64,000 bases of DNA, taken from NCBI GenBank assembly GCA_900770765.1, contig CAAGLK010000025.1:2388-66387 (forward strand). The letters run 5' to 3'. A program made the position numbers and the translations under genes. This stretch comes from Helicobacteraceae bacterium (GTDB lineage Bacteria; Campylobacterota; Campylobacteria; Campylobacterales; Helicobacteraceae). Shown here one piece after another: positions 1 through 64,000 of this stretch (position 1 is the first letter of the stretch; every line of letters begins with the position of its first letter). The notes under the pieces were generated by a model. It was not told the DNA's origin. It searched no databases and saw only the letters and a list, made by a program, of their open reading frames with translations.

Positions 1-473
1 AAAATATAAAATTGATAAAAATCGGTGATAATTATAAATTTTAAGTCAAAATTGCCACTTTTTCGCTCTTTATAATAATAATAAATGCTTTGTGCTAGGG
101 CCTTTGTGTTTGTTATTCCATTATAATAAAACATCTCAGCACTTCCTGGCTTTTTAGCCTCTATTATTACCTCTACATTTTCGCCGCATAGACTTAAATC
201 AATGGCGTTATTTGCCTTATCTAGTGGCTTTTTTATGCTTGTTTTAAAGCCTAGTTGTTTAAAAAACTCTGCTAAATATTCTGCGACAAGGGAATCCTCT
301 CCTTTTAGCTTGTGATTTTTATCAATATCATTTAAATAAGATTCTAAAGCGTTTTTAAAAGTTTCTAAGTTTGAAAAGTCTTTATATTCTAAATATAGTG
401 GATTTAAGAATTCTTTAATATTATTACTATCAATGGAGTATTTTTGAAAATAAAGTTGTGATTGTGCCTTCAT
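1..473 (-). CDS. Partial hypothetical protein. Only the N-terminal ~157 aa are visible; the gene continues past the left edge. Contains a PD-(D/E)xK-like motif (IDLSL...VEVIIEAKK).
   Basis: Reverse-strand ATG at 473..471 opens a frame that runs to position 1 without a stop. The translation reads MKAQSQLYFQKYSIDSNNIKEFLNPLYLEYKDF...IDLSLCGENVEVIIEAKKPG... It is absent from the ORF track because it is open-ended. Confidence 0.4.
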   Translation of the reverse strand, partial: MKAQSQLYFQKYSIDSNNIKEFLNPLYLEYKDFSNLETFKNALESYLNDIDKNHKLKGEDSLVAEYLAEFFKQLGFKTSIKKPLDKANNAIDLSLCGENVEVIIEAKKPGSAEMFYYNGITNTKALAQSIYYYYKERKSGNFDLKFIIITDFYQFYI

Positions 474-557
474 AGTTTTGCCTTTTGAGATTTGGGCGGA
501 TTTTACGCAAATTTTGCTAAAATTGCGAAATTTTTGCTTAAATTTCAAGGAGATTCT

Positions 558-2330
558 ATGCGAAGCGATATGATTAAAAAGGGTTACAAAAGAGCGCCAC
601 ATAGGAGTTTATTAAGGGCTACAGGGCTAAAGGATGAGGACTTTGATAAGCCCTTTATCGGCGTGGCAAATAGCTATATTGACATAATCCCCGGGCATTT
701 TTTCTTAAATAAATATGCTGAGATTGTCAAAGATGAGATTAGAAAGGCTGGGGGTGTGCCTTTTGAGTTTAACACTATCGGCGTAGATGATGGGATTGCT
801 ATGGGGCATAGTGGTATGCTCTACTCCTTGCCTAGCCGCGAGCTTATAGCTGACTGCATAGAATCTGTGATGAACGCACATTGTTTGGACGCAATGATAT
901 GCCTGCCAAACTGCGATAAAATCGTCCCGGGTATGCTTATGGGTGCGCTGCGTGTAAATGTGCCTGCGATTTTTGTAAGTGGCGGACCTATGAGGGCTGG
1001 GAAGTTAGAAGATGGAAGCATTTTAGACTTAAACTCTGCCTTTGAAGCCGTAGGAGCTTTTGAATCTGGCAAGATAGATGAGGAGCGATTGCATAAGATA
1101 GAGTGCGAAGCCTGCCCTAGCGGAGGAAGCTGTAGCGGGATGTTTACCGCGAATTCTATGAACACACTGTGTGAGGCTATGGGCGTGGCATTATCTGGTA
1201 ATGGCACGATTCTAGCCCTAACGCCTGAAAGAGAGGAACTCTTAAGAGCGGCGGCGAGGAGGATTGTGGAGATTGCTAAAAGTGAGGAGTTGAGCGAAAA
1301 GTTTAGATTCCGTAATATTTTGAATAAAAAGGCGGTGCATAATGCCTTTGTCGTGGATATGGCGATGGGCGGGAGCACAAATACGATTTTGCATATGCTA
1401 GCAATTGCTAAAGAAGCCGAAGTGGAGTTTGACCTAAAGGATATAAATAAAATCGCCCAAAATGTCGCGCATATCGCCAAAATCGCCCCGGCGTTGAGTT
1501 CTATACATATGGAGGACATAAACCGCGCGGGGGGTGTTAATGCGGTAATGAATGAGATTGCTAAAAGGCATTCAGTATTGAGCGATAAATCGGCGATTCT
1601 ACACTCGCCAACGAAAGCCAATGCGGATTCTGTAGAATCTAACCCCCAAGAGACAACGCTCTATTTAGACGCACTCACAATCACGGGCGAGACGCTAGGG
1701 GATAGAATCAAAGGGGCGGAAATTTTAGATTCTAATGTTATTAGAAAAAATGAAAACGCCTATTCACAAGCGGGCGGCTTGAAAATCCTCTATGGCAATT
1801 TAGCAAAAGAAGGCGCGGTGCTGAAAGTCGCCGCAGTGGCAGAATCTATGAAGGAATTTAGCGGCAAGGCGGTGTGCTTTAATAGCCAAGATGAAGCCAT
1901 AGCTGGAATCGCTGGAGGCAAGGTCAAGGCTGGAAGCGTGGTGGTTATCCGCTATGAGGGACCGCGTGGAGGTCCCGGAATGCAAGAAATGCTAAGCCCA
2001 ACCTCGCTCATTATGGGAATGGGCTTAGGGGAGAGCGTGGCGTTAATCACCGATGGGCGATTTAGCGGGGCAACTCGCGGGGCGTGTATCGGGCATATAA
2101 GCCCAGAGGCGGCTGAGGGCGGACTAATCGCGCTTATTGAAGATGGCGATACGATAGAGATTTCTGTCTCGCGTGGGAGCTTGGAGCTAAAGGTGGAAGC
2201 GCAGATTCTAGAATCTAGAAAGGCAAAATGGCAGCCGATAAAAAAAGAGATAAAAAGCAAATGGCTCAAACGCTACTCGCTTTTAGTTAGTAACGCCGCA
2301 AATGGCGCGGTGCTAAAGACGGAGATGTAG
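558..2330 (+). CDS. ilvD: Dihydroxy-acid dehydratase
   Basis: ORF 492..2330. IlvD-like N-terminus starts at [23 protein letters not shown], preceded by an AAGGAG RBS. The CPNCDK... and Cys-cluster regions are typical of IlvD/EDD family dehydratases. Confidence 0.9.
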
Positions 2331-2346
2331 GGGTGGGCTTTAAATA

Positions 2347-3402
2347 ATGAGAGTTTGTGATATTTTTTGCGGAGCGGGTGGGCTTAGCTTTGGCTTTGCA
2401 AAAGATAGGGCTTTTGAGCTTGTTTTTGCGCTTGACAATGATAAGAGTGCGACACTAAGCTATCAGGCAAATCACCCTAATACTAAGCTAATTTGCAAAG
2501 ATATAAATGAGCTTACCAATGCTGAGTTAAAAGAATTTGGCGTAATTGATATTTTGCTAGGTGGTCCTCCTTGTCAAAGCTACTCTACACTTGGCAAAAG
2601 GCAGATGGATGAAAGGGCGAATTTATTTAAAGAATATTTGCGAGTGTTAGAATCTTTCCAACCAAAAGCCTTTATCTTTGAAAATGTAGTTGGGCTTTTA
2701 TCTATGCAAAAGGGTGAGCTTTTTTCTTATATTTGTAAAAATTTTGAGAAACTAGGCTATAGAATCTATCATCAAGTGCTAAATGCAGCAGATTTTGGTG
2801 TGCCTCAAATTAGACAGAGAGTTATTATTGTGGGTATTAGGCAAGGTTTTAGTAAAAACTTTATGTTTCCACAGGCTACACATAAGGAATTTATCACGCT
2901 AGAGCAAGCATTGAATGATTTGCCACCTATTAAAAGTGGTGAAAATGGCAATCATTTAGGATATAAATATGAGCCTTGCAATGAATTTTTGCATTTTGTT
3001 AGGAAAAGTGAAATTTTAAGCGAGCATGAGAGTCCAAAAAATAATGAGAATCTAATTAAAATTATGCAACTTCTAAAAGATGGGCAGAGCAAGGATGATT
3101 TGCCCTTATGTGTGCGACCAAAATCAGGCTACACAAACACTTATGCCAAAATGTGGTGGCAAAGACCAGCCCCTACAATTACGCGAAACTTCGCCACCCC
3201 AAGCAGCTCAAGATGTATCCACCCTAGAGATTCTAGAGCCTTAAGTATAAGAGAGGGGGCGAGACTGCAGAGCTTCCCAGATGATTATGTATTTTGTGGT
3301 AATGCAAGTGATAAAAAGCTCCAAATAGGAAACGCCGTGCCACCGCTTGTAAGTATGGCTTTAGCTAAGGCAGTGAGAGATTATTTTAAAGGTATGATAT
3401 GA
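2347..3402 (+). CDS. DNA (cytosine-5)-methyltransferase (type II m5C MTase)
   Basis: Motif I FCGAGG, motif IV GGPPCQSYS, motif VI ENV, motif VIII QIRQR, motif X GNAVPPLV. TRD-like region with TYAKMWW...RCIHP. Confidence 0.9.
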   Translation: MRVCDIFCGAGGLSFGFAKDRAFELVFALDNDKSATLSYQANHPNTKLICKDINELTNAELKEFGVIDILLGGPPCQSYSTLGKRQMDERANLFKEYLRVLESFQPKAFIFENVVGLLSMQKGELFSYICKNFEKLGYRIYHQVLNAADFGVPQIRQRVIIVGIRQGFSKNFMFPQATHKEFITLEQALNDLPPIKSGENGNHLGYKYEPCNEFLHFVRKSEILSEHESPKNNENLIKIMQLLKDGQSKDDLPLCVRPKSGYTNTYAKMWWQRPAPTITRNFATPSSSRCIHPRDSRALSIREGARLQSFPDDYVFCGNASDKKLQIGNAVPPLVSMALAKAVRDYFKGMI

Positions 3403-4031
3403 AAGAGATTGAAGCAACAAATCTATATGGAAAAGGACACGAACAGCAAAAGAAAAGACCATATCTAGCAATTTATGAGGACGCAAATTATTTTCTTGCA
3501 TTTCCAAAAACAACAAAAAGCAAAGGGGGCAAAGAGTATCCATCTCACAAGAATTTAATACTCGATAATAAAATAGAAATAATGATAGATCAGCTATCAA
3601 TTATTCCAAGAATAAACACCAGCATAAAAGATTTGAGCGGTTGGCAAATTAAACTACAACAATTAAGTTGTGATAGCACCGACAAAAAAATAGTTTTTGA
3701 ACATTTTTGTAAATTTGTGATTATGCAAGATAAAGAAGCCTCGCAAACATGTCAAGTTCGGTTTGGAGATATTATAGAGTTAAAACACTCTAACCCTTTA
3801 TTAACCAACAAACAGCACTTTATTGTTTTGTCTAGTGGCATATTTCATCAATCAAGAATGTGCTGCATAGCTCCATACAATCAAGAAAGTGGCAATATAG
3901 ATTATGCTTTATTGCATTGTATAGACTATGAAGCAAGGAAAATAACAAAAATTGACAATAAGAAATGCCTCAAAAAAGATGAAATTATCAATGAAATAAA
4001 AATATTATTCTTGGGAAATCAAAATGTTTAG
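3399..4031 (+). CDS. Hypothetical protein, 210 aa, translationally coupled to the upstream m5C MTase. Candidate restriction/defense component.
   Basis: ATGA overlap with the MTase stop and long intact ORF. No recognisable family motif. Locally depleted of GAATC/GATTC relative to surrounding genes. Confidence 0.5.
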   Translation: MKEIEATNLYGKGHEQQKKRPYLAIYEDANYFLAFPKTTKSKGGKEYPSHKNLILDNKIEIMIDQLSIIPRINTSIKDLSGWQIKLQQLSCDSTDKKIVFEHFCKFVIMQDKEASQTCQVRFGDIIELKHSNPLLTNKQHFIVLSSGIFHQSRMCCIAPYNQESGNIDYALLHCIDYEARKITKIDNKKCLKKDEIINEIKILFLGNQNV

Positions 4032-4761
4032 CGCAGATGATTTTAAGCAATATCGCAATGCTTTAGGCTTTAGTTCAAAACAAAATTTTAAAGAATTTTT
4101 AAGCGCAAAGGACATAAAGCCAGAAATTGACTTTACATATATAGATTCCTTAAATAAGCGGCTTTGCGAGATTTTTGAGCGCATAAATAAAATCTATTAT
4201 AAATCTTGCGATATAGAATCTTTTTTGCAAAATACGCTTTTTAATGCGTTTAATTTAATGAAAAATAATGCGATCTTAGAAAAGCTAAATAATCAAGGCA
4301 GACGCAAAGAAGAGGTGTATTTTGGCTGGATGCGCGGATTTTTAATTTGTGAATATTTTAAAGAGGCTATTTGTGATATTTTTAGCATTGATTTATCGCA
4401 GATTTTGCACATTGGAGGGGATGATTTTTCTTCGCTAGATACTTTTAAAAGAACACCTAAAGCAGATTTGCAAATACAAAACATAAGAATAGAAATGCAA
4501 AGTGGGTTTCAAGGGATTAATGATATTAAAGAGCATAAAGTGCGTGAGGCAAAACGCAATTTTTTAGAGCAAAAAATCAAAACTTTAGTGATACATTTTG
4601 ATATTTTTAATGGGCAGGTGGCTTTTGTGGATATTTCAAATATCGCAGATGATGATTTACATTGGATTACAAGGCAGCAAATGGAGGGACAAAGTGTGTT
4701 TAATATAGAGCAAAATTATTTTAAATGGAAATTACAAGTTAAGCCACCTTGTTTTGCATAA
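4024..4761 (+). CDS. Hypothetical protein, 245 aa, translationally coupled to the previous ORF (8-nt overlap)
   Basis: Intact ORF overlapping the previous stop. No recognisable motifs. GAATC/GATTC-poor. Confidence 0.5.
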   Translation: MFSADDFKQYRNALGFSSKQNFKEFLSAKDIKPEIDFTYIDSLNKRLCEIFERINKIYYKSCDIESFLQNTLFNAFNLMKNNAILEKLNNQGRRKEEVYFGWMRGFLICEYFKEAICDIFSIDLSQILHIGGDDFSSLDTFKRTPKADLQIQNIRIEMQSGFQGINDIKEHKVREAKRNFLEQKIKTLVIHFDIFNGQVAFVDISNIADDDLHWITRQQMEGQSVFNIEQNYFKWKLQVKPPCFA

Positions 4762-4820
4762 TATAGTTAAATAATGTTGATTTAAACATAGCTATTAGAA
4801 ATTTAGATTTAAGGATTTTA

Positions 4821-6047
4821 GTGGATTTTACGCAAAATAAAAAATATAAATTTGGTATTTTATTGGCGGCTACTAGTGATAGTATTTTTACACTTGGGAC
4901 TATGATTGCAAATATTTATGCGATTATGGGGGAGTGTGTGGATGTGTTTTATATAGTTAGCGATAAGATTCTACCTAGTGATAAAGTTGCTTTACAAAAA
5001 GTGGCAAGAGATATTGAAATAAAGTTTATACCATTTACAAAAGAAATTTTTGAAAATAATTTTATAGAGTTTGCAAATGCAAATAAAGAGGAATTAAGAG
5101 AGTTTTTAAAAGCACAAAATGCGTTTTTACGCCGCTGGTCTTATATGGTTTATGCTTGTTTTGAAGCGTTTAAATATTTAGGGGAGTGTGAGAGGATTTT
5201 ATATTTAGATTTTGATATTTTGCTGCTTCGCACATTATCGCATTTAAGTAGAGTAAAAGAGGGCTTTGCACTGCATAAAGGGCGGACGAAAATCTCGCAT
5301 AATGCGCCGCTTTATGAAGGTGAGTTTAGAAAATATCCTGTTTATAGAAGTGGCATAATTTTATTTACACAAGCGCTTGCTAATCCGCTAGAATCTTTAA
5401 AAAGCTGTTATAAAAATAGCTTTAAATATAAGATGATAAGCGACCAAGTGGCAATTTCCCTTTTAATCTATGAAAATAAAATAAAAGTAAAAAATTTATC
5501 ATATAAATACACAGGGCTTCCGCATTTTAGAAGCAATGATAATCCTTATTTAATCCATGCTTATGGTAGTAATAATAGATTTTGGAATAATAGGCTTTGT
5601 AATAGGCTTTTCCCTAGCTGGAATCTTTATTATAAAGAGTGGTTGGAATCCGGCGGAAGTGCTTATAAGGGCGGCTTTGTAGCAAATACTACAAACTCTT
5701 ATGAACGCTTTAGATACCATTTAAGCTATAAATTAGGCTATGCGATTGTTAAAAATCATACTTTTCCTAAGGCTTTAAAGCTGTTATTTTTACTGCCTTA
5801 TATCACGCTTAAGCATAAAATACAGATTCTAAGATATAAAAATTTAATAAAGAAAAAGCCCTTTTTAAAACTGCCGCCTCTAGTAACTTATGATGACTAT
5901 AATCGTGGAATCTTAGAAAAAAATAGTATATCTTATAGGCTTGGAAGTGCGCTGCTAGAAGTCTTTAAAGGTGGTAATATTTTTAGTAATTTTATGCGAT
6001 TTTGTAGGCAAAGCAAGGCTATTTATAAAAATAAGCTAGAATCCTAA
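4821..6047 (+). CDS. Putative glycosyltransferase (GT8-like; DxD-type motif YLDFDILL)
   Basis: 408-aa ORF. YLDFDIL and SDQVAISLL resemble GT8 DxD and DQD regions. The C-terminal half is unassigned. Confidence 0.45.
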   Translation: MDFTQNKKYKFGILLAATSDSIFTLGTMIANIYAIMGECVDVFYIVSDKILPSDKVALQKVARDIEIKFIPFTKEIFENNFIEFANANKEELREFLKAQNAFLRRWSYMVYACFEAFKYLGECERILYLDFDILLLRTLSHLSRVKEGFALHKGRTKISHNAPLYEGEFRKYPVYRSGIILFTQALANPLESLKSCYKNSFKYKMISDQVAISLLIYENKIKVKNLSYKYTGLPHFRSNDNPYLIHAYGSNNRFWNNRLCNRLFPSWNLYYKEWLESGGSAYKGGFVANTTNSYERFRYHLSYKLGYAIVKNHTFPKALKLLFLLPYITLKHKIQILRYKNLIKKKPFLKLPPLVTYDDYNRGILEKNSISYRLGSALLEVFKGGNIFSNFMRFCRQSKAIYKNKLES

Positions 6048-6844: not shown

Positions 6845-7234
6845 TTATAAAACATCGCATAAGGATTCGCCGTTGTGAAGTTTTGCACTTTTTGTATGCT
6901 GACACTCTAAAATGTTATTTTTTAACACAAAATGCACCATACTTCCATAAATATTTGCAGAGATTCCATTTTTTGCTTTATCAAAGTGGCAGTTTTGCGT
7001 CTTAAAATCTAGTGGTGCATAAAGAGCGTCCCAGTTTATGCTGCCTTGTTGTTTTTGCTCTTTTAGATTCAGTCTTAATTGCAGCATTTGTAGCTGTATT
7101 TTTTTCATACAAGTATTTTTTGAATATCCGCTAAATTTTGGAATCGCAATGCTTAGTAAGATTCCACTAAGTAAAATTACTAAAACAAGCTCAAAAAGCG
7201 TAAAAGCCGCCTTTTTAGAGTGTTTAAAAAACAA
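6845..7234 (-). CDS. Prepilin-type N-terminal cleavage/methylation domain protein (pseudopilin-like)
   Basis: N-terminus KKAAFTLFELVLVILLSGILLSIAIP is a class III signal with a conserved Glu at +5 after the predicted cleavage site. Confidence 0.6.
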   Translation of the reverse strand: MFFKHSKKAAFTLFELVLVILLSGILLSIAIPKFSGYSKNTCMKKIQLQMLQLRLNLKEQKQQGSINWDALYAPLDFKTQNCHFDKAKNGISANIYGSMVHFVLKNNILECQHTKSAKLHNGESLCDVL

Positions 7235-7694
7235 TAGAATTGCTCAATAGTGGAATCTTTAAGGATTGATTTAGCCCTATTTGATGCACTAGTTTTTCAC
7301 ATATTGCACCATTTGCATTTGCTGCTGCTTGTGTGCTTAACTCTAAAAATTGCACTGCATCTGGCGTGGTGGCTTGTGTATTATTTGCCCCTATTAGTTT
7401 TGCACTAATGCAAGGAAGCTGGCTAGAATCCTTAATTTTACTTGAAATTGCATATTCGCCTATGTCCCAATTTGCACTACTTAGGGTTATTGCACTTATA
7501 AAAGTGCCGCTGCCTTGTGCTAGAAAATACGCTGGAAAGGAAGTTTTAAGCGTGTTTATATCCGCCTTTAATGCGACTAGCTTTGCATCATCTCTACTTG
7601 CAGAAATTTTTGGGATAGCAACAGCGGCTAGGATTCCTAAAATTACTAAAATAAAAACAAGCTCAAGCATTGTAAAAGCACTTTTCTTACGCAT
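7224..7694 (-). CDS. Prepilin-type N-terminal cleavage/methylation domain protein (pseudopilin-like)
   Basis: MRKKSAFTMLELVFILVILGILAAVAIPK. The start was moved to the internal Met of ORF 7224..7718. Confidence 0.6.
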   Translation of the reverse strand: MRKKSAFTMLELVFILVILGILAAVAIPKISASRDDAKLVALKADINTLKTSFPAYFLAQGSGTFISAITLSSANWDIGEYAISSKIKDSSQLPCISAKLIGANNTQATTPDAVQFLELSTQAAANANGAICEKLVHQIGLNQSLKIPLLSNSIVF

Positions 7695-7744
7695 TTTAAT
7701 CCTTAAAATAAAAGGCAAAATTGTAGCATTTTAAGCTAAGTTTT

Positions 7745-8407: not shown

Positions 8408-8800
8408 TATAAAAAAGCTACAAAAAGTGCTAAAAAAGCACAAAAATCAAAAGCATTTTTCAAAAATGCAAATTTAAAAAACGCCACTCTTTTAGCGGAA
8501 TCCGCCTCTATTTTTGCTAGTTTTTGCCTTTTGTGGCGGATAATTTCTAGGATAAAAACAATTAGCCACACAATAAGCATTACTAGAATCTTAAAATTAA
8601 AAATAAAGCCAAGCATAGCCCAAATTACGAGTCCGCTAAATAAAGAAGCACTCAATAGCGTATAATAGCCTGGTGCGACAAGTGCTAGAGTGCGGAGCTT
8701 TTTTGTATGTGTGGTAGAAAAACTAAGTGAATAAAGATTTAAAAGTGGTGGCAAAAATAGGGGGGCTGATAATAAAATATGGATAAAAATAAGTTCAATT
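8407..8800 (-). CDS. Small hydrophobic membrane protein (hypothetical). The 5' end is uncertain.
   Basis: ORF 8407..8868 has multiple predicted TM helices, and its stop overlaps the rsmE start. The annotated 5' end would overlap the tRNA, so the true start is probably internal. Confidence 0.4.
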
Positions 8801-8841
8801 CCTACAAATTCCAATGTGTTTTCTTTATATAAATTTAAAAT

Positions 8842-8918
<77 letters not shown>

Positions 8919-8953
8919 ATAAATATTAAAAAATGTAAATGAAGTTTTGAAAG

Positions 8954-9028
8954 TGGCTGGGGTACAAGGATTCGAACCTCGGAATGGCTGGACCAAAACC
9001 AGCTGCCTTACCGCTTGGCGATACCCCA
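8954..9028 (-). tRNA. tRNA-Gln (anticodon UUG)
   Basis: Reverse complement reads TGGGGTATCGCCAAGCGGTAAGGCAGCTGGTTTTGGTCCAGCC...GGTTCGAATCCTTGTACCCCAGCCA, matching the canonical tRNA-Gln acceptor and T-arm, with a TTG anticodon. Confidence 0.85.
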
Positions 9029-10175: not shown

Positions 10176-10187
10176 ACTATAATGTTG

Positions 10188-10240: not shown

Positions 10241-12904
10241 ATGCGTATTGGCACACATTCTAGATATACAATGCTGCAGTATAATCAAAACAAAACACAA
10301 AATTCTCTAAATAATGTCCTAACTCAAATGAACGGCTTAAAGATACAATATGGCTACCAGGATTCTAGCGTATTTAATAAAACTCTAGCGCTTGACTTTA
10401 ATGTAACAACACTAACACAAAGTAAAGAAATAGCATCAAACGCACTTACTTTCACGCGCCACACGGACACTGCCTTAAGTGAGCTTTCAAAAAGTATGGA
10501 TAATTTTAAAACAAAGCTAGTGCAAGGGGCAAATGATATTCATAGCGAAACTTCACGCCTTGCTATTGCAAAAGATTTAAAAGCTATTAGAGACCATTTT
10601 TTATCAATTGCAAATACTTCTATTGGCGGTGAGTATATCTTTAGCGGAAGTGCCACTACTACAAAGCCTTTTGGTGCAAATGGTGCTTATAATGGAAATA
10701 ATCAAGTATTAAACGCATTGCTTGGGTCAAATAATGAAGTGGCTTATAATATTACAGGTGCTGAGCTATTTTTTGGCTCTGATAATGATACAAATCGCAT
10801 AATTACTACAAATATAGGTAAATTTAATCAAAGCGAGTTAAATCCCGCGATTATGGATAAAAGCCACCCAACAGGGCAAGGGACGGAAGTGTATATTAAA
10901 GAAAGCGATACTTTAAGGGATTTAGTAGGCGATAATGATAGCGATACGACAAATAACCCTCCAGAAGTGTTTTATATCACAGGAAGAAAGCCAGATGGAA
11001 CTGCTTTTAAATCAAAATTTGAAATGGATATTAATTACACAGATGAAAAGCAAGCCGCAACAGTGGCGGATTTATTAGAAAAAATAGGCAAGGAATTTGG
11101 CAATACTGAGACTAGTAAGGTTGTAGATGTTAGCCTTAATGCGTGGGGACAAATTGAAATAAAAGATTTAAGCGGCGGACGCTCAAATATAGAATTTAGT
11201 ATGATTTCAAGCAGTTACAAGGACCCAAATAACGACCCAAACGCACAAAATCCGCTTCAAGGTGCCGATGGCGTTGGTGTGCTTGATATTGATGTGTTAT
11301 TAAATAGTGGTGTTAAGGTTAATTCCTATGTGCAAAGTCCATTTTTAGGCACTTTTGCTAGCCCTAGCATTACTTCGGTAGAAAATGATTATGACCATAG
11401 GCTACATACGATTCCAACTTCTTTTAGAACACATACTAATGAAGTAGCAAAAACAACTACGCTTCTAAGCGATATTTTTCCAGAAGGTGTTACGCAAATA
11501 GAGCTAAGTGGGACAAGAGGAAATGATGCAGATAAGAATCCGCAAAATCAAGCAATAGCGGCACAAACTTTTAATATCACTGCCACTTCTACGGTGCAAG
11601 ATTTAATGAATTCTATTTCTAATCTTTATGCGGGGAATGGGCAAAATGTTGAAGTGGAATTTGATAGCATAAGCGGCAAAATTACTATAAAAGATAATAA
11701 TGTAAGTCAAACAAATCCACCAGATAGAAACCCAGATGACTTGCCCTTTGATGGTGAAAGTTCTTTAAGTTTAACGCTTACCACACAAGATGCTAATGGT
11801 GCGGCTATAAATGGATTCCGCCATGATTATAGTGTGGAGTTTGATAGGGTTAGCTTTAGCAGAGAAGGGGGGACGCTTACTTCAAATGTAGCTCAAATTG
11901 TAAGGGATACAAATGAAATTGCAACAATGAATACAAAGCTAAGCGAAGTGGCTGGAGCTGGATTAAATGGGCATACTTATAATTTTGAAGTTAAAGATGT
12001 AAATGGAATCGCAATTAATGGACGCATTGAATTTAGAGATGCTGGAAGTGTGTTTATTATAGATTCTCCAGCACAAATTAATGGGGTGGATATTGATGGG
12101 ATTGAGATTCCAATACTGCAAGCTAATGGTAATCCACCGCAAGTCTCAGGCGAACCTACAAGTGCGGATAATGTTACCTATAAGCAACTTAGCGATACTT
12201 TAGGTATGATATTAAATCTAAGTAATTCTACGCCGGCTAATTTAACTGCTATTACAAATAATGGTGCTGGTAATGCTAACTTTAACACTCCAGCAAATAA
12301 ACTAGCCTATGAGGAATTATTAAAAGGTGCTAGTTATAGTGTTAGCGTTAAGTTAAATGTGGATGGGGAGCTTGAGGTGAAAGATTTAAGTAAAGTTCCT
12401 ACACAAATGGAATTATCGCTATATGATTCTACAAGCGATTTATACGCACTTAATGCAAATGGGCAAATAGCAGGGCAGCGACCGGCTTTGACATTTCAAT
12501 CAAATAGTGCAGTGGTAGCAGATGACCCACATGTGAATTTCTTTAAACAAATTGATGAAATGATTGAAGCGCTAGAGGCGGGGACTTACCGCGCTGGTGG
12601 TGTGGATAATTATAGCGATGCAATGCGGAATCCTGGAATCCAAAACGCCCTTTTACTATTTGACCACTTAAGCGACCATGTGGAAAAGGCACATACAAAA
12701 AATGGCGCACAAGGAAATGCTTTTACTTATTCAATTGAACGCACAGAGACGCTTATAACGCAAGTTAAGACGCTAAGGAGTGAGACTATTGATACTGACT
12801 TTGCCGAGGCTTATTTGCAGTTTTCAACGCTTAGTTTAAATTATCAAGCGATGCTTTCAAGCATTGGTAAAATTTCACAATTATCGCTTGTTAATTATTT
12901 GTAG
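10241..12904 (+). CDS. flgL: Flagellar hook-associated protein 3 (FlgL, long epsilonproteobacterial form)
   Basis: 887 aa. N-terminal flagellin-N-like heptads (LKIQYGYQDSSVFNKTL...) and C-terminal flagellin-C-like helix (LQFSTLSLNYQAMLSSIGKISQLSLVNYL). Confidence 0.8.
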   Translation: MRIGTHSRYTMLQYNQNKTQNSLNNVLTQMNGLKIQYGYQDSSVFNKTLALDFNVTTLTQSKEIASNALTFTRHTDTALSELSKSMDNFKTKLVQGANDIHSETSRLAIAKDLKAIRDHFLSIANTSIGGEYIFSGSATTTKPFGANGAYNGNNQVLNALLGSNNEVAYNITGAELFFGSDNDTNRIITTNIGKFNQSELNPAIMDKSHPTGQGTEVYIKESDTLRDLVGDNDSDTTNNPPEVFYITGRKPDGTAFKSKFEMDINYTDEKQAATVADLLEKIGKEFGNTETSKVVDVSLNAWGQIEIKDLSGGRSNIEFSMISSSYKDPNNDPNAQNPLQGADGVGVLDIDVLLNSGVKVNSYVQSPFLGTFASPSITSVENDYDHRLHTIPTSFRTHTNEVAKTTTLLSDIFPEGVTQIELSGTRGNDADKNPQNQAIAAQTFNITATSTVQDLMNSISNLYAGNGQNVEVEFDSISGKITIKDNNVSQTNPPDRNPDDLPFDGESSLSLTLTTQDANGAAINGFRHDYSVEFDRVSFSREGGTLTSNVAQIVRDTNEIATMNTKLSEVAGAGLNGHTYNFEVKDVNGIAINGRIEFRDAGSVFIIDSPAQINGVDIDGIEIPILQANGNPPQVSGEPTSADNVTYKQLSDTLGMILNLSNSTPANLTAITNNGAGNANFNTPANKLAYEELLKGASYSVSVKLNVDGELEVKDLSKVPTQMELSLYDSTSDLYALNANGQIAGQRPALTFQSNSAVVADDPHVNFFKQIDEMIEALEAGTYRAGGVDNYSDAMRNPGIQNALLLFDHLSDHVEKAHTKNGAQGNAFTYSIERTETLITQVKTLRSETIDTDFAEAYLQFSTLSLNYQAMLSSIGKISQLSLVNYL

Positions 12905-13132: not shown

Positions 13133-13185
13133 ATGCTATGAATCCTAGCGGATTCTAGCAATGATGGAATCCTATTTGTCATTGC

Positions 13186-19015: not shown

Positions 19016-21031
19016 TTAGGATTCCACTTTTTGTAAAAACTCTTTAATGGTGCATAAATTTTGCTTGATTTTATCCATTTCTTGCTTAAGGGATAAAATT
19101 TGCGATTCTAAAAACTCTATTTTATTTTGTGTTGTTTTTGCATTATCGTTTAATATTTTAGAATAAGCCTTTTTTAGACAATTCATAGGGCCAAATAGCC
19201 TTGCTTGAAAGGCTTCAAAACAAAAGGCTTCATTTAGATAATCTCTAACATTGTTTAGTGTTGGGGTAAAAAGTGCGAATTCATCTTGATTTATTGCGTG
19301 TTTATTTATCGCATTTTTAATTTTTAAATCTAAATTATTTAGCGTGAAACTTAAGGCATTTTCATAGCTTAGCGATAAAAAATTGCTTAGCACGCTTAGC
19401 TCACTTTGCAAATATGCTACACACTCATTTGCATTATGTTTAAAATCTAGGATAAATAATAAATTTGTATTTTGTAAAATCGTGTTAAATTGTAATAAAC
19501 CATCGCTATTTTGTGCTTTTATAAATGGGGCGGCTATTTTTGGTGCGTCGTGCTGCCATTTATTTATGCTAGATTCTAGCATGTTTGTATGCGCTTCTAT
19601 GCTTTTTTTAAAATGGTCTAAAAATGTTTTTATCTTTACGCTTATTGCTTTGTAATCTCGTGCTAATTTTGTATCGTTATTTTGTAATTCTATGCGGATT
19701 TTTTCTAGTGGGAGAATCGTTACTTCCTTGCTATTTTGCAGAATCTTTTGACTTAGTAGAGTTTTTTTAGTGTAGTTGAAATCCATTTTTATAGATTCTA
19801 GTGAGTTATAAATTTTTTGCGCAAAAGAATCTAAGTTAGAATCTAAATTTAAATATAAATCATTAAAAATTTGCTGCTCTTTTTCTAAGCTGGAATCTGT
19901 GCTTTGCTTAAAGGATTCTAAGGATTTATTTAAAATATTTTGTAAATTTTTATATCGCTTTGCTATTTTGTGATATTGCAAGTTTAGTAAAATGTGCATT
20001 TCTTTTAGCTTTTTAATGCTTGTGTGGATTTTTGCTATTTTTGCCTTTGGCTTTATTGTGTTATTTAAAAACTCAAATATTAAGGGCATATTTGATTCTT
20101 GCATTAATTTCTCTGCATTTTTTGTATCTAGGGATTCTAACTCTTTTTTAAGTGAACTCTCTTGGCTTAGAATCTTATTTAAGCTATTTAGAATCTCGCT
20201 TGGGCTACTTGTCTCTAGCTTCGCACTTAGGGATTGTAAATTTTGAGTTAGATTTATTAGCTTTGTTTGTAGGAATTTTTCTTGTGTGTTTAGCCTTGCT
20301 TGCAGTGCCATTTTTGCAGAAATTGGGATGCAATTAAAAAAGATTCCGCTAAAGGCGTCTTTAGCATAGGTTAGGCTTGTTTGCACTTCTTTTTCATCTT
20401 TTAGCCTATCTTTTTGATTTAAAACACATAGGCTTTTTTGTGCAAAATGTGTGCTAAATTCTTTTAAAAGTGCTATTTCGCTGCTTTTACCTGCATTGTC
20501 TATTAAGGTTAGCCATATAATTCCATCTGTGCTATTTAGAATCTTTAGAGTAGTTTTTGTATCATCGGCGTTTTGTGAGTTAAAGCCTGGAGTGTCTAAA
20601 AAGTTAATTTCTTTTAAAAGTAAAATGGGAGCATAGAGACAAAAATGGTCTATATTTTTAGAATTTTCTCTATTTAGATTATGTAAAAATTCCACACTTT
20701 GAAGCACTTTTGCCCCATCTTTGTAGAGAATTTCTAAAATATAATCCTCTCCATAGCAGATTTTACACACTTTAGAAGTAATTGGCGTAATTCCTGTTGG
20801 CAGAATATCTTGCCCTAAAAGTGCGTTTAAAAATGTGCTTTTACCGCTTGAAAATTGCCCTATGATTGCTATTTGCATAGGTTCTTTGCTTTTATGCTCT
20901 AGCTTTTCAAAAAAGCTAAATTGATAGTCGTTTGGCGAGAGATTATTTTGACAATTTAATAATAATTCACTAATTTTTGATTTTTTTTCATTTTTTAAGC
21001 TAAGGCATTCTTGTATGTAATTTTCTAACAT
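19016..21031 (-). CDS. Bacterial dynamin-like GTPase (DLP), downstream member of a tandem pair
   Basis: P-loop GQFSSGKSTFLNALLGQ, G2/G3 motifs (DTPG), large helical stalk. Confidence 0.7.
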   Translation of the reverse strand: MLENYIQECLSLKNEKKSKISELLLNCQNNLSPNDYQFSFFEKLEHKSKEPMQIAIIGQFSSGKSTFLNALLGQDILPTGITPITSKVCKICYGEDYILEILYKDGAKVLQSVEFLHNLNRENSKNIDHFCLYAPILLLKEINFLDTPGFNSQNADDTKTTLKILNSTDGIIWLTLIDNAGKSSEIALLKEFSTHFAQKSLCVLNQKDRLKDEKEVQTSLTYAKDAFSGIFFNCIPISAKMALQARLNTQEKFLQTKLINLTQNLQSLSAKLETSSPSEILNSLNKILSQESSLKKELESLDTKNAEKLMQESNMPLIFEFLNNTIKPKAKIAKIHTSIKKLKEMHILLNLQYHKIAKRYKNLQNILNKSLESFKQSTDSSLEKEQQIFNDLYLNLDSNLDSFAQKIYNSLESIKMDFNYTKKTLLSQKILQNSKEVTILPLEKIRIELQNNDTKLARDYKAISVKIKTFLDHFKKSIEAHTNMLESSINKWQHDAPKIAAPFIKAQNSDGLLQFNTILQNTNLLFILDFKHNANECVAYLQSELSVLSNFLSLSYENALSFTLNNLDLKIKNAINKHAINQDEFALFTPTLNNVRDYLNEAFCFEAFQARLFGPMNCLKKAYSKILNDNAKTTQNKIEFLESQILSLKQEMDKIKQNLCTIKEFLQKVES

Positions 21032-21040
21032 AGTTTTCCT

Positions 21041-23368
21041 TTAATTTGTCGCAAATTGCTTTATATCTAAGAAGTGTGAAAAGCCGCACTCTATTAACTC
21101 TATGGCTTGTGTTAGCTCTTTTAATTTTACTTCTTTTGTTTCTTTGTTTTGTGATAGATTCTTAAGGGCGTTTTGTAGGCTTTCTTCTTTTAATTTAAGC
21201 GTGTTTGTTAGGTGGGATTCTACTTCGCTTAAATTTTGCATAAAGGATTCTAATAGCTCTTTTTCTAAAATTTCGCAAGTTTTTAGCAAGTTTTCTAAAA
21301 ATGTGTTGAAGCTAAGGTTGAAGCTGTTTTGTAGCGATTCTTTTATTTTAATTGTGTCGTTTTTACTAAAACTTGAGAGATTTTTAAAAATGGATTCTAG
21401 TAGCATTAGCTTAATTTTGGCTATTAGAGTGGAATCTAAATCTGTGTTGAAATTGGCTAGTTTTGGCTTAGTTTGCTCGTTTTGTAGTTTTTGTAAAGAA
21501 GTGCTAAATTGCGATTTTAGCTGTATTGTTTTTTTATATAAATTTTGTGAATTAAAGCGGAGAATTTCTACAAGCAAGTCTTGCAAGCCAAGGCTTAGCA
21601 TAGAATCTAAGCGGGTTTTTGAGAAATTTTGCCCTTTTTGTAAATCATATAAAATTTCGCTAAATATGCGGTCTATTAAAATACTTTGTGCTGTTTGTAG
21701 CTTCTGTGTTAATTCATTTTTTAGCGTTAATAAATAAACTTGTAATTGTGATTTTATGAATTCTAGCAATTCTTTTGTCTCTTTTAGCTCATTTTGTGCG
21801 GCTTCTTTTTCTTTACTTTGCTCTTCTAAAATTTCTTTTATTTCGCCCTCTTTTGCAAAAAGTAGGTTTTTTTCTAAAAGCAAGGCTTCTTTTGTGTCGC
21901 TAAAGATTCTGCTAAAGCCTTGCGTGGCTAGATATATTATGTCCTTTGCCTTTGAGCTATCGCTGCCTAATAGCGATTTTTCTAAATATCCCTCTAGTGC
22001 ATTAAAGCCAGAATCCTCTAAGTTAAATCCTAACTCCTTTGCTTTTTGCGGATTTGTTTTACAAACTAGCGCTGGATAGCTAGCAAGTGTCAAAAAGTCT
22101 AATCGCTTTAAAAGCAGTTCTGCTTCTTTTGCTTCTAAATTTTCTTTTAATCGCTGCTTTATACTATCTTTTGTGTAATTTAGTGCAGCGCTTAAGTCTT
22201 TTTCTTCTAATAAATCTGCGTGGGTTAGAATAATTAGGATTCTAGCTAGATTTGCATTTTTTAATGAGTATAAAATAAAGTCAATGTCAATTTGTGTAGC
22301 ACTTTGAGAGGCGTTCATTGCGTGGATTAATAGGTCGCATTTGCTTAAATAATTTTTTGTAATTTCCTCTCTTTGAATTATAGGGTCATCAAGCCCTGGA
22401 GTATCTACTATTGTTATATTGTTTTCTAGGAATCTTAGCGGAGTAAATAGCTTTGTTTGCTTTGTTAGAAAGCATAGTTTATGCGGGTGATTCGCTGAGG
22501 TAAAGGTCGGCAATTCTTCTAGCGTTATATTTTTAGTTTGAGATTCTTTTTTTATGTAAAGGGCGGTGGAATCTTTAAAATTTTGATTATTTAAAAGTGC
22601 TTTTGTTTTATCTGTTAAAATGGATTCCACCTCGCTCCACTCTTGCGTGTTCCAAAAGGTAATTTCTGCACTCTCTGTTTTACTATAGCTTAATAGTGTT
22701 AAGCTAGCGGTTTCTGGGATTGTTGAAGTGCCTAGAATCTCTTTTCCTAAAAGTGCGTTTAAAAGTGTGCTTTTACCAGCGCTTAAGATTCCTGTTATGC
22801 AGATTGTGAAGTTTTGATTTTTTGCTTTTTGTAAAATCTCTTGTGGTTTGCTTGTGGCTAAGTGTGGGAAGATTTGCACTATTTTGTCTAAATCATTTTT
22901 ACAATTTTCTAAAATTTCTAAGGATTCTTTTAAAAAATCATTAAAAATTATTTTAGGATTCTTACTAGAATCTTGCGTTTTTATAGAAATATTTTTGCTT
23001 ATCAATTCTTTAAAAAAATCTTTAATTAATGGGAGATTTTCATTAGAAACAAGGGCGTTTTTTTCTAAAATTTCTAAATTTTTTAGCGTTTTTTCCAAAA
23101 TGGCTTTAGTGGAATCTGGCCCAGCACTAAAGGCTTTATCAATATTTAAAAGCAGCGTGTATTGCACTTGTAAAATACCCTTAAAACTTATGCTTTTACA
23201 ATATTCCTCACATAACTTTTGCAAACTCTCACTTTTATAAAATACATTAAATCCAGCAGCCCCTAAGCTAAAAAATATAGCTAAAACTTCATCTGCATTA
23301 GGCGAGTTTAGAATATGTAAATTCCCAAGCGGTAAAATATCTTTATAAATTTTTTCAAATCTCTCCAT
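21041..23368 (-). CDS. Bacterial dynamin-like GTPase (DLP), upstream member of a tandem pair
   Basis: P-loop GILSAGKSTLLNALLGKE, DTPG, long helical regions. The arrangement resembles the Campylobacter DLP1/DLP2 pair. Confidence 0.7.
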   Translation of the reverse strand: MERFEKIYKDILPLGNLHILNSPNADEVLAIFFSLGAAGFNVFYKSESLQKLCEEYCKSISFKGILQVQYTLLLNIDKAFSAGPDSTKAILEKTLKNLEILEKNALVSNENLPLIKDFFKELISKNISIKTQDSSKNPKIIFNDFLKESLEILENCKNDLDKIVQIFPHLATSKPQEILQKAKNQNFTICITGILSAGKSTLLNALLGKEILGTSTIPETASLTLLSYSKTESAEITFWNTQEWSEVESILTDKTKALLNNQNFKDSTALYIKKESQTKNITLEELPTFTSANHPHKLCFLTKQTKLFTPLRFLENNITIVDTPGLDDPIIQREEITKNYLSKCDLLIHAMNASQSATQIDIDFILYSLKNANLARILIILTHADLLEEKDLSAALNYTKDSIKQRLKENLEAKEAELLLKRLDFLTLASYPALVCKTNPQKAKELGFNLEDSGFNALEGYLEKSLLGSDSSKAKDIIYLATQGFSRIFSDTKEALLLEKNLLFAKEGEIKEILEEQSKEKEAAQNELKETKELLEFIKSQLQVYLLTLKNELTQKLQTAQSILIDRIFSEILYDLQKGQNFSKTRLDSMLSLGLQDLLVEILRFNSQNLYKKTIQLKSQFSTSLQKLQNEQTKPKLANFNTDLDSTLIAKIKLMLLESIFKNLSSFSKNDTIKIKESLQNSFNLSFNTFLENLLKTCEILEKELLESFMQNLSEVESHLTNTLKLKEESLQNALKNLSQNKETKEVKLKELTQAIELIECGFSHFLDIKQFATN

Positions 23369-46697: not shown

Positions 46698-46805
46698 TAA
46701 AATCCTTTTTTGTGGATTTAGATTTTTAATTTAAACTGCAGTAAATTTAAACTAAGAATCCAAATTTAAGATTCCACTTTAAAGCGTGGAATCTTAAAAA
46801 ATAAT

Positions 46806-52934: not shown

Positions 52935-52999
52935 TATAATACTTTTGTGAAAAGATAGCTTGGAATCTAAAATTAAGATTCCACTTTTTAGATTCTTAC

Positions 53000-56435: not shown

Positions 56436-56463
56436 GGCTAGAATCTAATTTTGGATTCTAGCT

Positions 56464-58760: not shown

Positions 58761-58826
58761 CACTTTTTAAAGGATTATTTAAAATATGAAGCGAGATGGC
58801 TGAGCCAACATTAATTTCAATAAAAC

Positions 58827-58895: not shown

Positions 58896-58941
58896 TTTGA
58901 AGCGTAAATATCGTTCAAACTATAAAGCGAGATTGTTTTAT

Positions 58942-59886: not shown

Positions 59887-59895
59887 TTTTTCTCC

Positions 59896-61113: not shown

Positions 61114-61124
61114 TTTTACACTCC

Positions 61125-61517: not shown

Positions 61518-61525
61518 AAATCCTC

Positions 61526-62086
61526 CTATTTTACTTCATTATAGGCTTTTCTTATAACTTCCATATTTGCGTCAATTATCTTTTGTGGAAGTTTTTTGCC
61601 AAGCACTTTTTTAAATGATTCTAAGAAATAATCAAGCTCTAAAGTTTTAGAAATCTTTAAAAACGCTCCAAGCATAGGCGCATTTGGGATAGACTTGCCA
61701 AAGGCGTCAATTGATAGCTTAACGCAGTCTAGCACATAGACTTCCTTGCCTTTAAGCTCTGGCTTACTTTGTATTAGCTCCTCTTTGCTTAGGCGAGTTG
61801 TGATAATGTATTTTGTATCTGGCTTTTCATTAGCACAAATATCAGTTATATACACAAGGCCAGGGTCAATTACTAAAATATAATCTGGATTCATAAACTT
61901 TTCGTGATTTAAAATAGGGCTATCATCAATGCGATTATACGCTGTCATCGCCGCTCCACGCTTTGCTGAGCCATAAAAGGCAAATGCTTGCACCTCTTTA
62001 CCAGTGCCTGCAATCACATCTGCTAAACCTTTCGCTCCTGTTACCGCACCTTGCCCAGCGCGGCTGTGCCATCTAATCTCTAGCAT
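61526..62086 (-). CDS. porG: Pyruvate:ferredoxin oxidoreductase gamma subunit
   Basis: RWHSRAGQGAVTGAKGLA N-terminus typical of the POR gamma subunit. Confidence 0.8.
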   Translation of the reverse strand: MLEIRWHSRAGQGAVTGAKGLADVIAGTGKEVQAFAFYGSAKRGAAMTAYNRIDDSPILNHEKFMNPDYILVIDPGLVYITDICANEKPDTKYIITTRLSKEELIQSKPELKGKEVYVLDCVKLSIDAFGKSIPNAPMLGAFLKISKTLELDYFLESFKKVLGKKLPQKIIDANMEVIRKAYNEVK

Positions 62087-62344
62087 AATGCCTCCTAAAA
62101 ATGTTTTAAAGTTTAGATTTTAAAAGATTCTATCTTAAATTAATAATCTTTGTGTAAAAAAAAGTAAAAAAAATGTTTAAGTGTGTAAAAATAACTCATA
62201 AGAAATTTTTATTTTTAGCGATTTTTTAAAATGTTAGGATTCTTATAAAACTTTGCAATAAACACAAAAAATTTTATTATAATTTGCCTTTTTTAAAAAG
62301 GATTCCACATAGACTCATTACCGATTATTTTATCCACTCTTTTA

Positions 62345-64000
62345 ATGGCTGTTATCTCTGGCATTGTTTTAAATAAACTTAAGATTCCAGCTATTATTGG
62401 CTATATTTTAACAGGCACGATAGCGGCGTATATCTTTGGGCTTCGTGTAGAGGATTCTACTGATTTAAATCAAGCAGCTGAGCTTGGAATCGTGTTTTTA
62501 ATGTTTATGATTGGGCTTGATTTTAGCTTTAAAAAAATTAAGCAAATGAAGCAAGAAGTGCTTGTTTTTGGTGGGTTACAAATTGGGCTATCAATTAGTG
62601 CGTTTTTTGCTGTGTGTTATTATTTATTAAGATTTGATTTTAACACTTCTTTAATTGTCGCTTGTGCGGTGTCTTTATCCTCTACGGCGATTGTTTTAAA
62701 GCATTTAAATGAAAGCAATCAAGCAAAAACGCCTTATGGAGAGGCCTCAGTTGGAATCTTAATTTTTCAAGATATTGCGGTAATTCCAATTTTACTTTTA
62801 ATAAAACTTCTAAGCAGTAAGGATTTAAGCACAACAGAGCTTTTTTTAAACACAGGAATCTCGGCTATTATTGTCGTGCTTTTATTAATTTTACCTGGTA
62901 GATTCTTAGCAAAATTTGCACTTCGCTCAAGTGCGAAGATGAAAACAGATGAGATTTTTGTAGGGGCGGTGTTTTTAATCGTGCTTGGGGCGGCTTATAT
63001 TAGTGAGCATTTTGGCTTTTCTATGTCGCTTGGGGCGTTTTTAGCTGGTATGATTGTGTCAAACTCGCCTTATAAATATCAAGTCGCAAGTGTGCTTGTG
63101 TATTTTAAAGATTTGCTTTTGGGTGTGTTTTTTATAACTATTGGTATGCAAGTTGATGTGCTTTTTGCTCTTATTCACTTGCCTATTGTGCTTGTTTTAG
63201 TTGCACTTATGATTTTAGGCAAAACGCTTATTATGTTTTTAGCGCTTTGGGCTTTTAGAGGCGCTAGGATAGCTATGCGTATAGCCTTGTCTCTATCGCA
63301 AATTGGGGAATTTTCCTTCGCTATTTTTCTTTTAGCAAGTCAATATAAAATTTTAAATTTAAAGCTAGATGGCGGAATCTTAAGCTTAATTTTTGGGCAA
63401 GAGTTTTTAGCCTCTCTTGATTCCACACAAATTCATCAATTTTTAACTTTAATGGTGATTTTTTCAATGGTCGCTACGCCTTTTATTTTAGAAAAGCTAG
63501 ATTTTTGCACTGATTTTGCCTTAAAAATGCTAGGCTTAAGAAGCCGCTTAAAACCTAAGGATAATAGGGCGAATCTAGGCGATGAAGAAGCGGTAAATGA
63601 AGTGATAATTTGCGGTTATGGGCTTTTAGGAAAAAGTGTTTTAAATAGCTTGCAAGGCTCTAGCGTTAATGTGCTTGTCGTGGATTCCAACTATGAAAGA
63701 GTGCAAAATGCACTAAAAGATGGTTGCAATATTATTTATGGAAACATCGCTGATAAAATGATTTTTAGAGAAATACAAGTGGAAAAATCAAGCGTAGTAA
63801 TTTTATGCGTAGAATCTGCAAATACAATAGCAAGTGCCTGCCAGCATATAAGCGGAATCTCGCATTTTGTAAGAATTGTTGCAATAACCGATGATGACGC
63901 ACTCGCTAAGTATTTGCAAAGCATAGGGATTTATGGTGTGGTAAATCAAACGCAAGAATGCGCTACGCTTTTATCTAATCTCGCACTAGAAGCACTAAGT
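62345..64000 (+). CDS. CPA2-family monovalent cation:proton antiporter with a TrkA-N (KTN) domain (Kef-type); 3' end beyond the window
   Basis: Open frame from ATG 62345 to the window end. ~12 TM segments, then a Rossmann motif VIICGYGLLGKSV. Absent from the ORF track because it is open-ended. Confidence 0.7.
   Translation, partial: MAVISGIVLNKLKIPAIIGYILTGTIAAYIFGLRVEDSTDLNQAAELGIVFLMFMIGLDFSFKKIKQMKQEVLVFGGLQIGLSISAFFAVCYYLLRFDFNTSLIVACAVSLSSTAIVLKHLNESNQAKTPYGEASVGILIFQDIAVIPILLLIKLLSSKDLSTTELFLNTGISAIIVVLLLILPGRFLAKFALRSSAKMKTDEIFVGAVFLIVLGAAYISEHFGFSMSLGAFLAGMIVSNSPYKYQVASVLVYFKDLLLGVFFITIGMQVDVLFALIHLPIVLVLVALMILGKTLIMFLALWAFRGARIAMRIALSLSQIGEFSFAIFLLASQYKILNLKLDGGILSLIFGQEFLASLDSTQIHQFLTLMVIFSMVATPFILEKLDFCTDFALKMLGLRSRLKPKDNRANLGDEEAVNEVIICGYGLLGKSVLNSLQGSSVNVLVVDSNYERVQNALKDGCNIIYGNIADKMIFREIQVEKSSVVILCVESANTIASACQHISGISHFVRIVAITDDDALAKYLQSIGIYGVVNQTQECATLLSNLALEALS

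Follow-up and report, generated by a model that had tools for sequence, protein, structure and literature searches.

Why should a word of five letters recur once per 151 nt in the DNA of a gut bacterium? The question is raised by a stretch of 64,000 nucleotides from a Helicobacteraceae bacterium (contig CAAGLK010000025.1; the whole stretch is hereafter called the window), in which the pentamers GAATC and GATTC, together GAWTC (W, A or T; S, G or C; R, purine; Y, pyrimidine; N, any nucleotide), are several-fold more abundant than expected. Our comparative analysis points to an extended form of this word, (T)RGAWTCY, which appears to be positively maintained genome-wide and to have the properties of a lineage self tag of the non-pylori Helicobacter and Wolinella. 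The window has a G+C content of 35.0% and encodes FlgL and DnaX proteins that match Helicobacter-type models, the nearest named DnaX homologues (57-64% identical) being those of the unsheathed enterohepatic helicobacters H. pullorum, H. rodentium, H. winghamensis, H. valdiviensis, H. turcicus and H. mesocricetorum. A sequence identical to the window is present in one ENA metagenome assembly, and further contigs from pig-gut and ENA metagenomes, as well as the NCBI metagenome-assembled genome (MAG) GCA_029012265.1, carry copies that are 99.4-99.75% identical. Because of the DnaX and FlgL relatives and the near-identical pig-gut copies, the source organism is, judged by sequence, an uncultured pig-gut Helicobacter species.

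For the analysis of word abundance, 59 open reading frames (ORFs) covering 94% of the window were taken as genes, and expectations were derived from Markov models of orders 0-3, synonymous-codon shuffles within genes, codon-order shuffles, dinucleotide-preserving shuffles and avoidance-constrained synonymous swaps. The plus strand contains 217 GAATC and 207 GATTC, corresponding to 424 duplex sites (6.6 per kb), either pentamer alone occurring about once per 300 nt. The several-fold excess claimed in the initial annotation was thereby confirmed, while its density of one site per 60-130 nt proved somewhat too high; the expectation from composition given there, about one per 500 nt, agrees with the computed one per 475 nt (135 sites, order 0). 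The models of orders 1, 2 and 3 predicted 91, 94 and 170 sites, respectively. The observed/expected (O/E) ratios for orders 0, 1 and 3 are 3.15, 4.67 and 2.50; a value near 1 at order 3 had been named in the initial annotation as refuting the enrichment. Within ORFs, 395 sites were counted versus 150±10 after synonymous-codon shuffling (2.63-fold, z=24.8) and 107 after codon-order shuffling (3.7-fold). Ranked against synonymous shuffles, GAWTC is the most enriched of all 5-mers (z 19.9, runner-up 10.7), and the five top 6-mers and the nine top 7-mers all contain or overlap it. The longer forms GGAWTCC (53 sites) and GTGGAATC/GATTCCAC (52 sites) are frequent, as had been noticed earlier, with T-R-GAATC-Y being the better consensus: TRGAATCY is present in 215 copies on both strands versus 7.6±2.4 in dinucleotide-preserving shuffles (approximately 28-fold). 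Decay of GASTC by C-to-T transition was rejected as the source of the excess, as the deficit of GASTC amounts to about 107 words on both strands versus an excess of about 290 GAWTC, and its O/E of 0.64 (order 1) lies inside the range of 80 unrelated control loci.

The excess is found in genes and spacers alike, as the initial annotation had stated. Each of the six frame and orientation classes of GAWTC in genes is enriched (1.66-8.0-fold), and the spacers hold 29 sites in 4149 nt where 7.7 (order 0) or 4.3 (order 1) are expected (3.8-6.7-fold), so that sites are about as dense there (7.0 per kb) as in genes (6.6 per kb). Since all three frames, both orientations and the spacers are enriched, the excess acts at the DNA level, independently of frame, strand and coding status. 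Glu-Ser, Asp-Ser and Gly-Ile codon pairs, which had been put forward as a possible complete explanation, are themselves skewed toward the word: Gly-Ile is encoded by GGA-ATC in 54% of cases vs 4% expected by codon usage, Glu-Ser by GAA-TCN in 67% vs 28% and Asp-Ser by GAT-TCN in 71% vs 36%. Furthermore, word-compatible dipeptides are used 1.06-1.34 times as often as amino-acid composition predicts in the clade of enriched relatives, vs 0.77-1.04 times in outgroups. The pressure favouring (T)RGAWTCY therefore overrides codon preference and shifts dipeptide use. Codon usage or dipeptide content as the cause is ruled out by the synonymous and codon-order shuffles, by the per-frame analysis and by the spacers.

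With every site read in the GAATC orientation, a purine stands at -1 in 92%, a pyrimidine at +5 in 84% and a T at -2 in 62% of them, G at -4 and T at +6 being favoured less strongly. The preferences for T at -2, R at -1 and Y at +5 recur in the spacers and in every frame class bar one, namely the frame where T-R-G would be read as Trp or stop. The R and Y flanks are symmetric, and the T at -2 has no mirrored counterpart. The counts are not inflated by a longer repeat or a concealed mobile element, as no 14-mer occurs more than four times in the window and the flank preference decays smoothly. Sites are distributed evenly over genes (mean 6.4 per kb, SD 2.8 for the 59 ORFs, none deviating at p<0.01), and no periodicity of 3 nt or longer was found in GAWTC spacing across the window, the only deviation being a trivial shortage of very short distances. 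Among pairs at most 25 nt apart, inverted arrangements outnumber direct ones (36 vs 16), and 12 of the 29 spacer sites belong to close inverted pairs, though these numbers are small.

Comparison with related species, which the initial annotation had proposed, located the excess across a clade of Helicobacter and Wolinella. The loci of relatives were anchored on DnaX (approximately 14-22 kb each), and the enriched set comprises H. pullorum, H. rodentium, H. winghamensis, H. ibis, three uncultured relatives, a Wolinella MAG and, at a greater distance, Helicobacter sp. 23-1046; the control panel consisted of 80 CarB-anchored loci, mostly from distant bacterial taxa. GAWTC is enriched 1.5-3.5-fold over composition in 11 Helicobacter/Wolinella loci and 1.3-2.65-fold over synonymous shuffles in the clade loci, the R(-1) and Y(+5) flanks are kept across the clade, and the DnaX proteins of enriched relatives are as little as 46-64% identical to that of the window. 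In about 80 other bacterial loci the O/E (order 1) ranges from 0.25 to 1.26, vs 4.67 in the window, with the exception of a sheep-colon Helicobacteraceae MAG at 2.35. Values for the Campylobacter, Sulfurimonas, Halarcobacter and Nautiliaceae loci do not exceed 1, and in the H. pylori locus GAWTC is depleted (0.28 over composition, 0.45 over shuffles), as expected because of GANTC restriction in H. pylori. Within the orthologous dnaX-tsaE-lptB-rpoN block, two species tend to use the motif at the same positions, a positive correlation among those positions that allow it in both (pooled odds ratio approximately 6); 13 of 30 window sites are unique, and at least half fall where the amino acids of the orthologue forbid the word. 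Thus the abundance of the word is conserved between relatives and individual sites partly so. A comparison within the species (five other strains, 99.4-99.75% identical, with 128 variable columns) had no power, with 3 variable columns in motifs vs 3.9 expected. These variants among strains L091-L095, too few for statistics, lie at 1628 (GATTC/GACTC), 8308 (GATTC/GAATC, a W-to-W change that keeps the motif) and 58104 (AATTC/GATTC).

A control for the size of such an excess is offered by RAATTY, since DNA uptake in C. jejuni requires RAATTY methylated by CtsM (PMC8468864). In the locus of an uncultured Campylobacter sp. MAG (L009), RAATTY is enriched 3.6-fold over composition and 1.89-fold over synonymous shuffles (z 11.7). 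Against shuffles, its ratio does not exceed 1 in any Helicobacter, Wolinella, Sulfurimonas or Arcobacter locus (0.97 in the window) and reaches 1.15 in the Nautiliaceae locus, which is not significant (z 1.8). The two words mirror each other, as GAWTC is depleted in the Campylobacter locus where RAATTY is enriched. RAATTY, a known transformation self tag, therefore leaves a footprint of like kind and size to that of GAWTC.

The GAWTC word is also to be set beside other abundant DNA words. The DNA uptake sequences (DUS) of Neisseriaceae and uptake signal sequences (USS) of Pasteurellaceae, which consist of 9-12 bp with additional flanks, are found at roughly one copy per kb and show hundreds-fold enrichment, resemble it in being over-represented in both orientations, common to related species and tolerated in coding DNA at a cost to codon and dipeptide choice, and their frequent inverted pairing at gene ends may have a parallel in the few GAWTC hairpins; they differ in that the GAWTC word measures 5-8 bp, occurs 3.4-6.6 times per kb, is enriched 2.5-28-fold and contains no longer conserved element. 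The highly iterated palindrome HIP1 of cyanobacteria (GCGATCGC) is likewise hyper-abundant in all frames and spacers, lineage-specific and long of obscure function. HIP1 has been linked to orphan methyltransferases (PMC4390886), and a recent preprint ties it to methylation-dependent transformation and reports it as quasi-periodic (bioRxiv 10.1101/2024.09.10.611283). It differs as a GC-rich exact octamer containing GATC/CGATCG, whereas the word described here has an AT-rich degenerate 5-mer core with soft flanks in DNA nearly devoid of GATC, and by its reported quasi-periodicity, in contrast to the random spacing of GAWTC (coefficient of variation, CV, 0.99). The GANTC/GAWTC adenine methylation systems (CcrM; HinfI, TfiI; HpyAIV of H. 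pylori) share the core word, which is depleted there (0.28 in H. pylori) and is here the most enriched word, with equal density in genes and spacers. Chi and KOPS (FtsK-orienting polar sequences) are short frequent chromosomal words too, but with a replication-related strand skew that the GAWTC word is without. The closest precedent is CtsM/RAATTY of C. jejuni: both words are short, very frequent, A/T-cored palindromes with R...Y flanks, from sister families of the same phylum, and both are enriched beyond codon usage in their own lineage (1.89-fold for RAATTY, 1.3-2.65-fold for GAWTC). The word itself is a different one, and as its writer and reader are only putative, the GAWTC word is compared with the CtsM type rather than assigned to it. 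The GAWTC word thus resembles DUS/USS, HIP1 and above all CtsM/RAATTY, yet misses defining features of each. Hyper-abundant lineage-specific DNA words are known already; for Helicobacter or Wolinella our literature search, in which most subscription journals were not covered, retrieved no description of a GAWTC excess.

On the comparative and anatomical evidence, a likeness to uptake sequences is the best-supported of the three explanations first offered, the others being a methylation-linked signal and a polarity or chromosome-organisation motif. In the reading which we tentatively favour, (T)RGAWTCY would serve self-recognition in the manner of uptake sequences or HIP1, would probably be read in its methylated state and would have spread by transformation. 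GAWTC would be adenine-methylated by a conserved orphan methyltransferase, fragments rich in the word would preferentially be taken up or recombined within the lineage, and through repeated transformation the word would accumulate wherever coding constraints allow. We favour this reading because of the parallel with RAATTY in Campylobacter and the family-wide conservation with dialect-like flanks, because hairpin-forming pairs are found at gene ends and the word is scarce in a probable foreign island (both described below), and because the link between HIP1 and transformation is growing. A broader and more doubtful proposal is that each host-associated family of Campylobacterota tags its DNA with its own short R...Y-flanked methylated palindrome gating natural transformation, RAATTY in Campylobacter and RGAWTCY in the non-pylori Helicobacter and Wolinella, and that H. 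pylori would have lost the tag on acquiring GANTC restriction and indiscriminate ComB uptake.

Several observations weigh against the self-recognition reading. A word of 5-8 bp at 3.4-6.6 per kb is far shorter and denser than classical uptake sequences, its spacing is near exponential, hence random rather than even, and the unmirrored T at -2 would not be expected of a methyltransferase site that is simply palindromic. A search of the window and of about 7 kb on either side for a GAWTC methyltransferase yielded none, and methylation of the word is thus purely inferred; moreover, known methylated GANTC/GAWTC motifs are depleted, not enriched (PMC8919816). The Campylobacter control comes from just one locus of 20 kb, that of an uncultured species, and homologues of the pseudopilin-like genes of the window have a narrower distribution than the enrichment, which reaches Wolinella and Helicobacter sp. 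23-1046.

The main alternative, which we consider unlikely, is a methyltransferase-coupled repair drive, as in the model of Elhai for HIP1 or in Vsr/Dcm of E. coli, whereby near-motifs are corrected into the motif without any cellular function. For HIP1 there is a precedent (PMC4390886). Such a drive would account for a lineage-specific hyper-abundance in all frames and spacers, and most one-off variants of the word are indeed depleted (0.31-0.85 of the synonymous-shuffle expectation), but a deficit of neighbours follows automatically from the excess under a shuffle that fixes codon usage. It would further suit a genome rich in methyltransferase and restriction activity, as judged by word avoidance, the cytosine-5 gene and the MmeI-like gene, and Helicobacter is known to be without MutS1/MutL/MutH repair. 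However, depletion spares the transition precursor AAATC/GATTT (1.14) and instead affects transversion neighbours, namely GAATG (0.31), GAATA (0.65) and GAAAC (0.60), and no Vsr-like gene was seen in the window. As transition precursors are not selectively depleted, a Vsr-like T:G repair signature was rejected.

Less likely again is an epigenetic or replication-linked orphan methylation motif of the Dam/SeqA or CcrM type, whose high and even density would mark hemimethylated new DNA or regulate genes. GAWTC is a known adenine-methyltransferase specificity, that of CcrM relatives, and TfiI cleaves GAWTC (PMC8919816). The core is palindromic, its density is uniform over genes and it is conserved across the lineage, yet sites are not concentrated in promoters or spacers (7.0 vs 6.6 per kb), and no such methyltransferase was found in the window and its flanks of about 7 kb. 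To our knowledge, E. coli does not show a several-fold enrichment of the GATC sites of Dam. Furthermore, the documented methylated GANTC/GAWTC motifs are under-represented, with a log2 O/E of approximately -1 to -1.7 (PMC8919816).

The dense, dispersed and orientation-independent occurrence of the word would also suit the binding site of an abundant nucleoid-associated or chromosome-organising protein, or a preference of DNA structure, which we regard as improbable. The asymmetric T at -2 and an AT-rich extension on the 3' side (TGGAATCTTTAA) suggest contacts that reach beyond the 5 bp of a methyltransferase site, but periodic spacing is absent. We know of no candidate nucleoid protein, nor of a precedent for one imposing a 28-fold excess of an 8-mer in coding sequence.

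A further explanation would make the excess a passive by-product of codon usage, of Glu-Ser, Asp-Ser and Gly-Ile dipeptides and of the avoidance of restriction sites such as GATC, ACGT, GTAC, TCGA and GAAC, among others. Avoidance of words in the window is extreme: counted on both strands, ACGT is absent and GATC (4, i.e. 2 duplex sites in 64 kb), GTAC (6), TCGA (10) and GTNNAC (8) are nearly so, each vs 415 expected, and TCNGA, ACNGT, GTSAC, CATG, TCNNGA, GAAC/GTTC and CTGA/TCAG are depleted as well. This depletion looks like the avoidance of many restriction specificities known from Helicobacter. In addition, stronger GATC avoidance tracks stronger GAWTC excess in nine clade loci (the window, L001 and L082-L088; Spearman -0.77, p=0.016), and both might track an overall strength of word selection. 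However, synonymous swaps in which the avoided words were lowered to their observed level (a curated set of 25 words and a data-driven set of 625) raised GAWTC only from about 145 to 165-190 sites (approximately 20%) vs 395 observed, and gave 14-23 TGGAATC/GATTCCA vs 120 observed. The spacers, free of codons, are enriched 3.8-6.7-fold, the order-3 O/E is 2.5, and H. pylori avoids GTAC and TCGA as strongly as the window does while its GAWTC is depleted. The by-product of restriction avoidance was thus rejected by the constrained swaps and independently by the spacers, and the passive explanation as a whole is contradicted and highly improbable.

The negligible chance left to a polar motif of the Chi, KOPS or primase-site kind, kept in one orientation relative to replication, rests on the short and frequent 5-mer Chi of Bacillus and on the 80:49 distribution of TGGAATC on the two strands, a bias of about the size that GC skew predicts for a G-rich word, and is contradicted by the strand balance of the core (217:207) and of TRGAATCY (116:99) under a cumulative GC skew that rises through the whole window, and by the opposite bias of TAGAATC (53:71). 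With this balance and the near-exponential spacing, the polarity or chromosome-organisation motif suggested in the initial annotation was rejected.

The self-recognition reading draws in part on local features of the window (Table 1). Of the spacer at 46741-46800, for which three sites had been claimed, all three were found. Its perfect inverted repeat begins 5 nt past the stop codon of the minus-strand gene 46806-48104, and the pair at 52963-52984 separates a convergent ychF-like gene (plus strand) from a methyltransferase gene (minus strand). Motif-pair hairpins occur in four spacers, all at gene 3' ends or between convergent genes, and may be 3'-end or terminator structures, only one being followed by a T-run.

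Table 1. Location of the GAWTC word and of other features in the window
Feature	Position	Strand	Description
GAWTC field	1..64000	both	424 sites, consensus T-R-GAATC-Y, 215 copies; even over nearly all ORFs
Three-site spacer	46756..46793		GAATC at 46756, GATTC at 46770, GAATC at 46789
Perfect inverted repeat of two motif copies	46767..46801		TTTAAGATTCCAC, 8-nt loop, GTGGAATCTTAAA; 13-nt arms
Motif-pair hairpin	56441..56462		GCTAGAATC, 8-nt loop, GATTCTAGC; fills the 28-nt spacer of convergent genes
Motif-pair hairpin	52963..52984		TGGAATCT, 7-nt loop, AGATTCCA, then CTTTTT
Three alternating motif copies	13140..13172		GAATCC tagc GGATTC ... GAATCC; spacer 3' of flgL, between convergent genes
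Largest motif-free gap	10361..11410		1049 nt, within flgL
Motif-poor stretch	3229..4967		2 sites in 1.7 kb; about 9 expected from mean density
Cytosine-5 methyltransferase gene and two overlapping ORFs	2347..4761	+	probable restriction-modification island
MmeI-family type IIG gene, 5' end	1..473	-	gene of 1191 aa (MmeI_Mtase and Eco57I domains; 4552-8127 in L093)
Two adjacent pseudopilin-like genes	6845..7718	-	129 and 164 aa; prepilin N-terminal methylation motif; weak GspG/ComGC-like matches
tRNA-Met(CAT) and tRNA-Gln(TTG)	8842..9028	-	
Two neighbouring dynamin-like GTPase genes	19016..23368	-	671 and 775 aa

The motif-poor stretch, with the gap in flgL one of the two largest, spans two unannotated ORFs 3' of the cytosine-5 DNA methyltransferase gene, which hold 3 of the few ACGT, GATC, GTAC or TCGA words of the window. 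Because it is poor in the motif and contains these avoided 4-mers, its composition suggests a recent acquisition into which the word has yet to spread. The two overlapping ORFs have no family match and a G+C content of 30-31%, and together with the methyltransferase gene they probably form a restriction-modification island. The cytosine-5 enzyme is of type II (351 aa), with M.HaeIII as its best solved relative, and GGCC is moderately depleted (0.31).

In the window and its flanks, this enzyme and one MmeI-family type IIG enzyme are the only DNA methyltransferases found. The MmeI-family gene is split into pieces of 216 and 763 aa in strain L094, which may reflect inactivation or phase variation. 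In H. rodentium and one MAG (L085, 6912-8606; L088, 8158-9879), dnaX has as its neighbour a solitary gene (about 570 aa; N6_Mtase and Methyltransf_31 domains) that the window does not have at this position; the gene is a candidate for the methyltransferase of the clade. The pseudopilin genes mentioned in the initial annotation are present, and the species in which full-length homologues were detected all belong to the unsheathed enterohepatic Helicobacter, among them H. canadensis, H. mesocricetorum, H. turcicus, H. burdigaliensis and H. valdiviensis. They may serve as context for the uptake hypothesis, not as evidence that they take up DNA.

Among the remaining words, CTAG, usually rare in bacteria, is over-represented in the window (1.5-fold), as are GCTAGC (2.7-fold) and GCNGC (3.6-fold), and GCTAG often adjoins the motif (32 occurrences), as in GCTAGAATC. 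The ORF called at 8407-8868 overlaps the tRNA-Met gene, and its start is probably wrong.

If each family does carry a tag of its own, the GAWTC excess would be the footprint of an undescribed family-wide system of DNA self-recognition. As a self tag, the word would predict which DNA enterohepatic Helicobacter and Wolinella accept, which matters for the exchange of genes between gut pathogens, H. pullorum for example, and it would provide a handle for genetic manipulation, by including or methylating the word in donor DNA. Methylation-gated uptake would then extend from one Campylobacter species to a principle at the level of the phylum, and a second independent system would stand beside HIP1 for the study of how hyper-abundant short words originate. 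Whatever its function, the word is a sharp compositional marker for binning Helicobacter and Wolinella contigs and for spotting foreign islands within them.

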